Source of the DNA: a virus
Taxonomy: Duplodnaviria > Heunggongvirae > Uroviricota > Caudoviricetes
Virus record (IMG/VR): IMGVR_UViG_2534681831_000011
DNA: 12,566 nucleotides
Direction: 5' to 3' (one strand)
Shown one piece after another: positions 7,800 to 9,737 of the stretch. The notes beneath the pieces are model-generated. The model did no database searches and was not told the DNA's origin. It was given only the letters and a program-made list of their open reading frames with translations. A program made the position numbers and the translations under genes. Position 1 is the first letter of the stretch. Each line of letters begins with the position of its first letter.

Positions 7800-9737
7800 G
7801 TGACTCTTAAACGGGCCTGTTCCCTGCTGACGGTGAAATCCTTCAGTGAGGATGAACGGGTGATCACCGGGATTGCGTCAACGCCTTCTCCGGATCGGGA
7901 TGGTGACATCCTGGAGCCGGAGGGGGCGGAGTTTGGCAGTGCGATCCCGTTTCTCTGGCAGCATGACCATTCCCGCCCGGTGGGCCAGTGTACGGTGCGC
8001 CGGGTCAGCGAAGGGCTGGAAATCACGGCAACACTGGTGAAGCCGGTACCGGATATGCCGTCGCAGCTGGCTGCCCGGCTGGATGAGGTCTGGGCGGCCA
8101 TTAAGACCGGGCTGGTCAGGGGGCTGTCCGTGGGCTTCCGTCCCCATGAATACACTTATCTGGACGGAGGCGGACTGCATTTTCTGCGCTGGGAGCTGAT
8201 GGAGGTGTCTGCCGTCACCGTGCCCGCGAATGCGGAATGCACCATCCGGACCATTAAATCTTACGACCGCCCGTTTTCTGCCGCGTCCGGCAACCGGAAA
8301 CCGGTGGTGAAAATCGCATCTTCTGCCGGCGCTTCGGCACAGTCAATAACCTCTTTTCATAAGGAAAAGTCAGCAATGAATACTGGTGAACAGATTAAAA
8401 GTTTTGAAAACAAGCGTGCGGCGCTGGCAGCCTCCCTTGAGGAGATCATGAACAAAGCCGCAGAGGAAGGCCGCACACTGGATGTGGAAGAGGAAGAGCA
8501 CTACGACAACACCGCAGCGGAAATCCGTCAGGTGGATGCGCACCTGAAGCGTCTGCGTGAACTGGAAACCAGTAAGGCCGCCACGGCACAGCCGGTGAAA
8601 CAGGCCGGTAACGGGAATGTGGCCACGGTGGCTTCAGCGCCGGTGATCCGTGTTGAGCAGAAACTGGAGAAGGGGATTGGTTTCGCCCGCTTTGCCAAAT
8701 CACTGGCCGCGGCTAAAGGTGTCCGCTCTGAAGCCCTGGAAGTGGCCCGTCGTCAGTATCCGGATGACAGTCGTCTGCATCATGTCCTGAAATCGGCGGT
8801 GGGCGCAGGGACCACCACGGACCCGCAGTGGGCAGGCAGCCTGTCTGAATACCAGGAATATGCGCAGGACTTTATTGATTACCTGCGTCCGCAGACCATT
8901 ATCGGGCGATTTGGTCAGGGCGGGATCCCTGCACTTCGTCAGGTGCCGTTCAATATCCGCGTGCATGCCCAGGTGTCCGGCGGTGCTGCCGGCTGGGTGG
9001 GTGAGGGTAAGGCAAAACCCCTGACGAAGTTTGATTTTGAATCCATCACCTTCAGTCATGCGAAAGTGTCGGCCATTGCGGTACTGACGGAAGAATTGAT
9101 CCGTTTTTCCAGTCCGGCTGCTGATGCACTGGTCCGTAATGCGCTGGCGGAAGCGGTGGTGGCGCGTCTGGATACAGACTTTGTGGACCCGAAAAAAGCG
9201 GCGGTGGCGGATGTCTCCCCGGCGTCCATCACCCATGATGTGAAGGGCACGGCATCAACCGGTAACCCGGATGCGGATGCAGAGGCGGCGTTTGGACAGT
9301 TTGTGGCAGCAAACCTGCAGCCCACCGGTGCGGTCTGGCTGATGTCCAGCACCAATGCCCTGGCGCTGTCCATGCGTAAAAATGCGCTGGGTCAGAAGGA
9401 ATACCCGGACATGACCCTGCTGGGCGGCACCTTCCAGGGGCTGCCGGTGATTGTCTCCCAGTACGTGGGTGACCAGCTGGTGCTGGTGAATGCGCCGGAT
9501 ATTTATCTGGCTGATGACGGCGGTGTGGCGGTGGATATGTCCCGTGAAGCGTCACTGGAGATGCAGTCTGAACCGACCGGCGACAGTACCACGCCGTCCC
9601 CGGTGGAGCTGGTTTCCATGTTCCAGACAGGCAGCGTGGCCATCCGTGCGGAGCGCTGGATCAACTGGCGTCGTCGCCGTACTGCGGCGGTGGCGGTGAT
9701 CACCGGAGTGAACTACGGCAGTGCGTCCGGCGGCTGA
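7800..9737 (+). CDS. Prohead protease (S78/HK97 gp4-like), scaffold-like coiled coil and HK97-fold major capsid protein in one ORF
   Basis: 645-aa ORF with AGGAGG before GTG 7800. The N-terminal ~170 aa has a protease-like motif (GIASTPSPDRDGDILEPEGAEF...LWQHDHSRPVG); the middle has a charged helical segment (EQIKSFENKRAALAASLEEIMNKAAEEGRTLDVEEEEHYDNTAAEIRQVDAHLKRLRELE); the C-terminal ~350 aa is major-capsid-like. An internal AAGGAAAAG (8361-8369) plus in-frame ATG 8376 suggests a nested scaffold-capsid start. Confidence 0.85.
   Translation: MTLKRACSLLTVKSFSEDERVITGIASTPSPDRDGDILEPEGAEFGSAIPFLWQHDHSRPVGQCTVRRVSEGLEITATLVKPVPDMPSQLAARLDEVWAAIKTGLVRGLSVGFRPHEYTYLDGGGLHFLRWELMEVSAVTVPANAECTIRTIKSYDRPFSAASGNRKPVVKIASSAGASAQSITSFHKEKSAMNTGEQIKSFENKRAALAASLEEIMNKAAEEGRTLDVEEEEHYDNTAAEIRQVDAHLKRLRELETSKAATAQPVKQAGNGNVATVASAPVIRVEQKLEKGIGFARFAKSLAAAKGVRSEALEVARRQYPDDSRLHHVLKSAVGAGTTTDPQWAGSLSEYQEYAQDFIDYLRPQTIIGRFGQGGIPALRQVPFNIRVHAQVSGGAAGWVGEGKAKPLTKFDFESITFSHAKVSAIAVLTEELIRFSSPAADALVRNALAEAVVARLDTDFVDPKKAAVADVSPASITHDVKGTASTGNPDADAEAAFGQFVAANLQPTGAVWLMSSTNALALSMRKNALGQKEYPDMTLLGGTFQGLPVIVSQYVGDQLVLVNAPDIYLADDGGVAVDMSREASLEMQSEPTGDSTTPSPVELVSMFQTGSVAIRAERWINWRRRRTAAVAVITGVNYGSASGG

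Follow-up and report, generated by a model that had tools for sequence, protein, structure and literature searches.

The open reading frame (ORF) considered here lies on the forward strand, at positions 7800..9737, of a 12,566-nucleotide window (the whole stretch of DNA analysed, IMG/VR record IMGVR_UViG_2534681831_000011). The 12.6-kb window represents the lysis-to-head part of a long-tailed lambdoid E. coli prophage. From a GTG start to the stop codon TGA at 9735-9737, the full-length ORF encodes a protein of 645 amino acids (69.1 kDa) in which a protease, a linker, a delta domain and a capsid body follow one another. An earlier note on this DNA, written from the letters and their translations, had described a single frame running from protease to capsid without a stop, and this description holds: the ORF is open throughout, and the Pfam domains of both parts are significant. 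In this gene, an HK97-type prohead protease is naturally fused to the N-terminus of a delta-domain capsid protein. Comparison with its relatives indicates that the gene likely makes two proteins, namely the 69.1-kDa protease-linker-delta-capsid chain and a 48.4-kDa delta-capsid chain begun at an internal start codon. The PHROG 617 profile (‘major head protein’) matches the ORF end to end (E 3e-261; protein 1-639 versus profile 7-626), and RefSeq names the fused gene ‘phage major capsid protein’. The NCBIfam fusion-family model NF045541 scores only 54.9 bits, and because this is far below its 525-bit cut-off, the ORF is not a member of that family. The full-length product is preceded by the Shine-Dalgarno (SD) sequence AGGAGG (7789..7794, +), 5 nt before GTG 7800, with a predicted anti-SD duplex energy of -10.3 kcal/mol, and a counterpart SD is present in the homologues. 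Among the approximately 45 of 56 homologues listed, the 5' start is GTG only in the clade of E. coli and Shiga-toxin (Stx) phages and ATG in all others.

The N-terminal part (residues 18-153; 7851..8258, +) is a prohead serine protease domain of the HK97 family (S78), with putative catalytic residues His55 (7962-7964, +) and Ser110 (8127-8129, +). Pfam Peptidase_S78 (PF04586) matches residues 48-152 (E 1.9e-8, 35.1 bits versus a cut-off of 21). NCBIfam TIGR01543 matches residues 48-154 with 47 bits; because this score lies under the curated 59-bit equivalog cut-off, the protease is placed in the S78 family by Pfam and not among the NCBI equivalogs. In a BLASTP alignment of the protease part with HK97 gp4 (29% identity, E 7e-9), Ser110 is aligned to gp4 Ser114 and His55 falls one column off gp4 His65, the two residues that we take to be catalytic in gp4. 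His55, Ser110, Glu135 and Ser137 are invariant in 50 homologues at 38-53% identity. The AlphaFold model, built on 50 homologues (mean predicted local distance difference test score, pLDDT, 81.6), shows a compact protease fold with pLDDT >90 for residues 21-150. Pfam and PHROG annotation of the window genes reveals no second protease gene within the head module.

Between protease and capsid parts lies a disordered, hypervariable and indel-rich linker (residues 154-192; 8259..8375, +), which has pLDDT <50 over residues 154-191 and is the most variable part of the homologue alignment. The delta domain, or scaffold-like domain, follows at residues 193-~283 (8376..8648, +; the boundary is drawn from the AlphaFold model). 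It comprises two long helices, 195-222 and 229-262 (pLDDT ~94), right behind the disordered linker, and then a disordered stretch at residues 266-283. The earlier note had recognized a delta- or scaffold-like sequence immediately after ATG 8376, and the predicted helices bear this out. Maturation cleavage would probably occur within the disordered region, at residues 266-292. The capsid body (residues ~284-645; 8649..9734, +; 38.5 kDa) has the HK97 fold. Pfam Phage_capsid (PF05065) matches residues 386-635 above its curated cut-off (E 1.5e-14), and NCBIfam TIGR01554, the HK97-family major capsid model, matches residues 204-584 with 80 bits against a cut-off of 27.5. The latter alignment begins with profile position 3 at residue 204, which is residue 12 of the nested product. 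By BLASTP the capsid part has no significant similarity to HK97 gp5 (E 0.32), and a sequence search of the Protein Data Bank (PDB) gave one remote match, the Bxb1 capsid (E 0.0018), so that a fold search was needed. With Foldseek against the PDB, the capsid body matches the Bxb1 capsid (9d9x, E 4.7e-15), HK97 (2fte/8cfa, ~1e-11 to 1e-10) and, further, D3, T5 and gene transfer agent (GTA) structures (about 1e-11 to 1e-9). The Foldseek result is dominated by the capsid domain, so that the protease fold remains a predicted one. Domain architecture, fold and conservation of the catalytic residues are shown by these analyses.

The internal start codon is ATG 8376-8378 (+), which is in frame, encodes Met193 and stands two residues ahead of the first delta helix. 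It opens a nested ORF for delta domain and capsid (8376..9737, +; 453 amino acids, 48.4 kDa), the proposed precursor of the main capsid subunit. The ATG is preceded by T-AAGGAAAAG at 8360-8369, which contains the internal SD (U)AAGGA (8360..8365, +), with a spacer of 10 nt, a predicted anti-SD duplex energy of -6.2 kcal/mol and a TAA (8360-8362) that is out of frame. The earlier note had spoken of a strong SD before an in-frame ATG 8376. Its location is correct; its strength is not, as 15.7% of the codon positions of the ORF match or beat the SD energy of this site. Because the anti-SD energy at 8376 is unexceptional, the claim of an internal start cannot rest on the window sequence alone. The local context is more distinctive: GC content is 31% in 8346-8406 versus 59.8% in the whole gene, and the folding energy within ±30 nt of 8376 is -6.9 versus a gene mean of -18.2 (standard deviation 5.1), rank 12 of 625. 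Together, this local context and the conservation among homologues lift the internal signal above chance. No sigma-70-like promoter is predicted anywhere in 7400-10100, which leaves a nested-transcript model unsupported; a short product would therefore arise by internal initiation of translation and not from a nested transcript.

To describe the conservation of this site, we used a whole-library phmmer search, which found 12,682 relatives, and examined the best 150 cluster representatives (50% clustering), of which 139 are fused over their full length. DNA was gathered for 13 genomic loci, 80 viral-contig loci and four cultured phages, and the fused loci among them yielded 56 distinct junction sequences at 34-100% protein identity to the window. 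In all 56 junctions an ATG (GTG in 4) lies within ±3 codons of the Met193 column. A core of AGGA, AGGAG, AGGAGG or similar lies 5-10 nt upstream in 53 of them, and AAGG in the other 3. Met193 and Asn194 are invariant in the homologue alignment (A1), immediately after the most variable linker. At the protein level, a Met is present within ±3 residues in 123/139 fused representatives (<50% mutual identity), compared with 0.147 for other positions as a control, and a Met or Val in 136/139. K, G, E and R, whose codons are rich in purines, are over-represented among the residues just upstream of the start. The form of the SD differs between groups: enteric relatives have AAAGGA at the junction, while the high-GC group at 46-51% identity (including Reyranella and Chelatococcus prophages) has a full (A/G)AGGAGGG with duplex energies of -11 to -12. 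The motif occurs in three codon registers (AAG-GAA; AAA-GGA, ACA-GGA; GAG-GAG-GGC), the residues that it encodes vary accordingly (KE, KG, TG, (K/Q/E)EG), and the surrounding linker shifts in both length and sequence. This pattern indicates that the SD motif is kept at the nucleotide and not at the protein level. In the enteric clade, Gly is encoded by the rare GGA in 28/28 cases within the 7 codons preceding the ATG, compared with 129/1479 (8.7%) in the remainder of these genes (Fisher 3e-29, without correction for phylogeny).

The site also stands out when all positions of the gene are compared. Of the 640 aligned codon columns, column 193 shows the lowest GC content within ±30 nt (0.402 versus 0.578, standard deviation 0.039). 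Its mean SD energy is beaten only by columns 2-3, the real start, and by column 45, which is without a start codon; it is the sole internal column at which a conserved start codon and SD occur together. Local folding is weaker at the site in every homologue (mean z +2.7 in the enteric group and +1.8 in the distant group), and the GC content at third codon positions of the next 11 codons is 0.38 versus 0.59 in the enteric and 0.65 versus 0.78 in the distant group. The conservation of start codon, SD and open mRNA is likewise shown by these comparisons. A start codon, an SD and an AT-rich open context that are kept under sequence turnover are hallmarks of a functional translation-initiation region, which the site at 8376 would appear to be.

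Split relatives, in which protease and capsid are separate genes, offer another view of the same boundary. In five of them the separate capsid gene begins at the Met aligned with Met193 and has its own SD. The capsid gene start reads MSKFAEQITAFEQKRA in Pelagibacterium (L010), MTIEEQINAVKAK in Snodgrassella (L013) and MKTYAEQIADLE in Stenotrophomonas phage SOVA965; in Burkholderia phage vB_FUBS1 the capsid begins MTIAEKIKQLQ, and in Moraxella phage Mcat6 the capsid gene likewise begins at the aligned Met. Two stand-alone capsid representatives, P0249 and P0266, likewise have their first residue at query position 193. In vB_FUBS1 the stop codon of the protease is the TAA of a TAAGGA (883-885 of locus L095), whereas in the window the TAA of the same TAAGGA is out of frame; split and fused states therefore differ by the reading frame of the linker. 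The two forms are interspersed, and the split capsid of L010 is 79% identical to the capsid of the fused L009. Two of the splits could be sequencing errors, since the L010 genome was assembled from a metagenome and the SOVA965 record shows an extra frameshift inside the capsid gene; the cleaner cases are vB_FUBS1, Mcat6 and the Snodgrassella locus. With the internal site maintained, one change of frame within the linker could switch a lineage between fused and split states at little cost, and such cheap switching would explain why both are interspersed among close relatives.

As a plausible mechanism, one late mRNA would be read from two starts. Initiation at GTG 7800, with its AGGAGG SD, would yield the 69-kDa chain, and initiation at ATG 8376, with its UAAGGA SD in an AT-rich unstructured patch, would yield the 48-kDa delta-capsid chain, which would equal the capsid-gene product of the split relatives. 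The short form would build the bulk of a shell of ~415 subunits. A few long chains would co-assemble with it through their capsid and delta parts and thereby place the protease, covalently attached, inside the prohead; the protease would then excise itself, the linker and the delta domains to leave a mature subunit of ~38 kDa. The protease:capsid ratio would in this way be determined by how strong the two ribosome-binding sites are relative to each other, and the change of the 5' start from ATG to GTG in the E. coli clade may lower the long form further. We infer that both products are made, and likewise infer their ratio, their co-assembly and the cleavage sites. That the short chain would be the abundant form, and the long chain a minority subunit, is suggested by the protease:capsid stoichiometry of HK97 and D3: HK97 prohead I contains 415 capsid proteins and ~60 proteases, and D3 has ~90 proteases (PMC12749128). 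The earlier note had proposed two products of this kind, and the conserved start codon and SD, the open mRNA structure and the starts of the split relatives speak in favour of its proposal.

Several points weigh against two products. Ribosomes elongating from the 5' start traverse the internal site and could occlude it. The SD of the window is a 5-6-mer with a long spacer of 10 nt and is statistically unremarkable on its own. The homologues are phylogenetically related, and counts of them overstate independence; frequent switching between split and fused states could, moreover, mean that part of the conservation is inherited from split phases, a point countered by 32 distinct junctions of the all-fused enteric group that keep the site while the linker diverges. 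Neither protein nor N-terminal nor ribosome-profiling data on this gene or its homologues turned up in the literature found. Finally, the 48.7% identical homologue of phage PAJU2 was published as a single, autocatalytically cleaved polyprotein (Uchiyama 2009, in the account given by PMC8306868). If the same were true here, translation from GTG 7800 would yield every subunit as the 69-kDa fusion, which would cleave itself, and the internal ATG and SD would be an unused relic of a gene boundary. The record of PAJU2 accords with this, its note reading ‘prohead protease fused capsid protein’; the SD in the window is modest, and relics are to be expected where fusion and fission seem recurrent. A relic should decay, however, whereas the start codon, the SD (with GGA in every enteric case) and the AT-rich context persist over 34-100% identity. 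A polyprotein would also bring ~415 proteases into each prohead, compared with the ~60-90 of HK97 and D3, which would be physically possible. We therefore regard production of the polyprotein alone as unlikely.

The SD-like sequence could instead act without any initiation, as a translational pause between domains that helps the protease to fold ahead of the delta domain's emergence. A ribosome-slowing role has been suggested for internal SD-like motifs, although this is disputed, and the site does fall exactly on the domain boundary. Pausing, however, would require no start codon at 5-10 nt downstream and no lowering of mRNA structure, both of which are conserved, and the aligned Met is an actual start in the split relatives; this makes a mere pause very improbable. 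It is more doubtful still that only the internal start matters and that the protease part upstream is a remnant which is decaying, is not translated or has no function. The RefSeq name, which mentions the capsid protein only, and the weaker GTG start of the E. coli clade would fit such a remnant, but the confident fold and the invariance of His55, Ser110 and Glu135 over 50 distant sequences would not. In every homologue examined the domain moreover comes with a strong SD of its own, and the annotated head module shows no second gene for a protease. Two products from one gene thus remain the preferred reading, and it probably extends to the ‘capsid polyprotein’ family as a whole, that is, to at least 139 Proteobacteria clusters at 50% identity, to the Stx1a/Stx2c prophages that about one in four complete E. 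coli genomes contain, and possibly to actinophage fusions such as that of RRH1. These genes would then be nested genes with two starts, in which the long product is a shell subunit carrying the protease covalently, the internal ribosome-binding site makes the bulk capsid and sets the stoichiometry, and frame changes in the linker switch cheaply between fused and split states.

The prophage bearing the fused gene is of the Shiga-toxin type and belongs to E. coli. Region 7700-9800 shows 97-98% identity to many Stx1a- and Stx2c-converting phages and to some of the Stx2a-converting kind; further matches are phages 2851, YYZ-2008, 1717 and JLK-2012, of the genus Marienburgvirus. The region is found in 1252/5426 complete E. 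coli genomes, with up to 7 copies per genome. The fused gene (7800-9737, +) is flanked by two hairpins. A terminator-like hairpin (GAACCGC-TCCG-GCGGTT) with a T-run lies at 7762..7787 (+), between the stop codon of the terminase large subunit and the fused gene; it has 7 pairs, 4 of them GC, a T-rich tail and a folding energy of -9.0, and its T-run is conserved in the homologues. A GC-rich hairpin without a T-run lies at 9752..9773 (+), just past the stop codon of the fused gene (-19.6 for 9738-9785). The HK97 record has putative terminators annotated before gp4 and after gp5, equivalent to both hairpins here, and we take both as context, outside the proposed mechanism.

The order of head genes around the fused ORF is unusual. 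The genes for the terminase small subunit (5516-6079) and large subunit (6076-7737) are followed by the fused protease-capsid gene, a 73-amino-acid ORF (PHROG 829, to which PHROG assigns no function) and the portal gene (9949-11313), so that in 6076-11313 the portal gene is found downstream of that for the capsid; Burkholderia phage vB_FUBS1 and JLK-2012 share this order from the terminase large subunit to the portal. An HNH endonuclease gene (4861-5226) stands directly upstream of the terminase small subunit, an arrangement typical of HK97-like cos-packaging modules. Behind the portal gene, a repeat-containing ORF of 407 amino acids (11310-12533) starts with an ATG that overlaps the portal stop (ATGA) and contains, at 11501-12067, 3.5 tandem copies, 91% identical, of a unit of 162 nt (54 amino acids). 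The ORF aligns with positions 455-859 of the 859-residue PHROG 2271 ‘portal protein’. This alignment to the profile's C-terminal part implies that the ORF is fused to the portal in some phages, and the JLK-2012 record labels its counterpart a second ‘portal protein’. Farther upstream, an Ant-like anti-repressor gene (3039-3608; PHROG 524, E 2e-112) between the endolysin gene (2283-2768) and the Rz-like spanin gene (3762-4229) splits the lysis cassette, which is contiguous in JLK-2012. At the window's left end, a DUF1737/nanS-p-like (yjhS-type) gene at 3-1182 is broken into the overlapping frames 3-692 and 496-1182. Because it has a single-base gap near 685-689 compared with the intact gene of JLK-2012, it is a frameshifted pseudogene or reflects a sequencing error.

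If the two-start reading is true, common phage ‘capsid polyprotein’ genes need re-annotation, as they would have two products and not one. The dose of protease per prohead would be set by translation and not by a separate gene, which would provide a covalent counterpart to the non-covalent targeting of the protease in HK97 and would carry over to the capsid protein itself a logic known from lambda C/Nu3, Mu I/Z and herpesvirus UL26/UL26.5. Mechanistically this is an extension of an established theme, in a prophage module that is very common. In practical terms, it bears on the design of expression constructs for Stx-phage proheads or engineered HK97-like cages, and a low-level N-terminal fusion made from the upstream start would offer a route for loading cargo into capsids.

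The fusion itself is already known, from PAJU2, PHROG 617, PHROG 4523, the NCBIfam fusion model and the actinophage and MD8/F10 genes. The closest of these described systems is PAJU2, whose ORF003 aligns with the window protein over its full length at the identity given above and stands in the same order, behind the terminase large subunit. The internal signal recurs in it, with AGGAGGG 8 nt before the ATG of Met197 and MKTTAEQIAEFEA after it; in the literature found, in which the PAJU2 account is that of the citing PMC8306868, this second start is not mentioned. Single genes for protease, scaffold and capsid have been described in Arthrobacter phages of clusters AM, AU and AN, in Microbacterium phages of clusters EE and EL, in Rhodococcus phage RRH1 and, as gp5, in Pseudomonas phages MD8 and F10 (PMC7302621; PMC5513430; PMC8508860), and none of these three papers discusses an internal start. 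The actinophage and MD8/F10 fusions are distantly related or unrelated in sequence to the fused gene here, and those of MD8/F10 have an S49-type protease and a Mu-like capsid protein. In RRH1 (gp7; L100 4439-6424), the signal GGAAGGAA, with 8-nt spacing and the ATG of Met274, stands before MNRDQLIAQLL, at the least-structured spot (z +2.3), and a nested start of the same kind may thus recur in actinophage fusions. Pseudomonas F10 gp5 (L099) was also considered and rejected as evidence, since neither of its candidate starts, Met185 and Met220, is convincing from one sequence. Full-text literature searches, whose scope left key Hendrix-lab papers outside, found no report of a conserved internal start in protease-capsid fusion genes; papers on cluster O mycobacteriophages and the Pseudomonas ANT_H14 prophages and a preprint on CBASS (cyclic oligonucleotide-based antiphage signalling system) contain nothing on it either.

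HK97 gp4 and gp5 share with the fused gene the protease family, the capsid fold and an N-terminal helical scaffold domain. In HK97, however, gp4 and gp5 are separate, 2 nt apart, and the protease is packaged non-covalently, whereas here they form one fused gene; the portal gene lies upstream of the capsid gene in HK97 and downstream here. The nested-gene principle, for its part, is already known for protease/scaffold pairs. Mu I and Z form a nested, in-frame pair of protease and scaffold. The overlap of lambda C and Nu3 has been cited (PMC8508860), and a nested protease and scaffold is documented in ostreid herpesvirus 1 (OsHV-1; PMC11565193). In lambda C/Nu3, Mu I/Z and the herpesviruses, as in the fused gene, one frame encodes an N-terminal protease and a shorter C-terminal assembly protein, and it is as part of the long form that the protease enters the procapsid. 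The parallel to lambda drawn by the earlier note appears apt in just these respects, an N-terminal protease, a C-terminal assembly protein and an apparent internal start with its own SD. There are also differences: herpesviruses use a nested transcript, whereas no internal promoter is predicted here, and the lambda protease belongs to another family (S49/ClpP-like) than the S78 protease of the fused gene. Most importantly for the proposed mechanism, the part shared by the two products is a free scaffold in lambda, Mu and the herpesviruses, whereas here it comprises scaffold and capsid protein together, and the long form would itself be a subunit of the shell.

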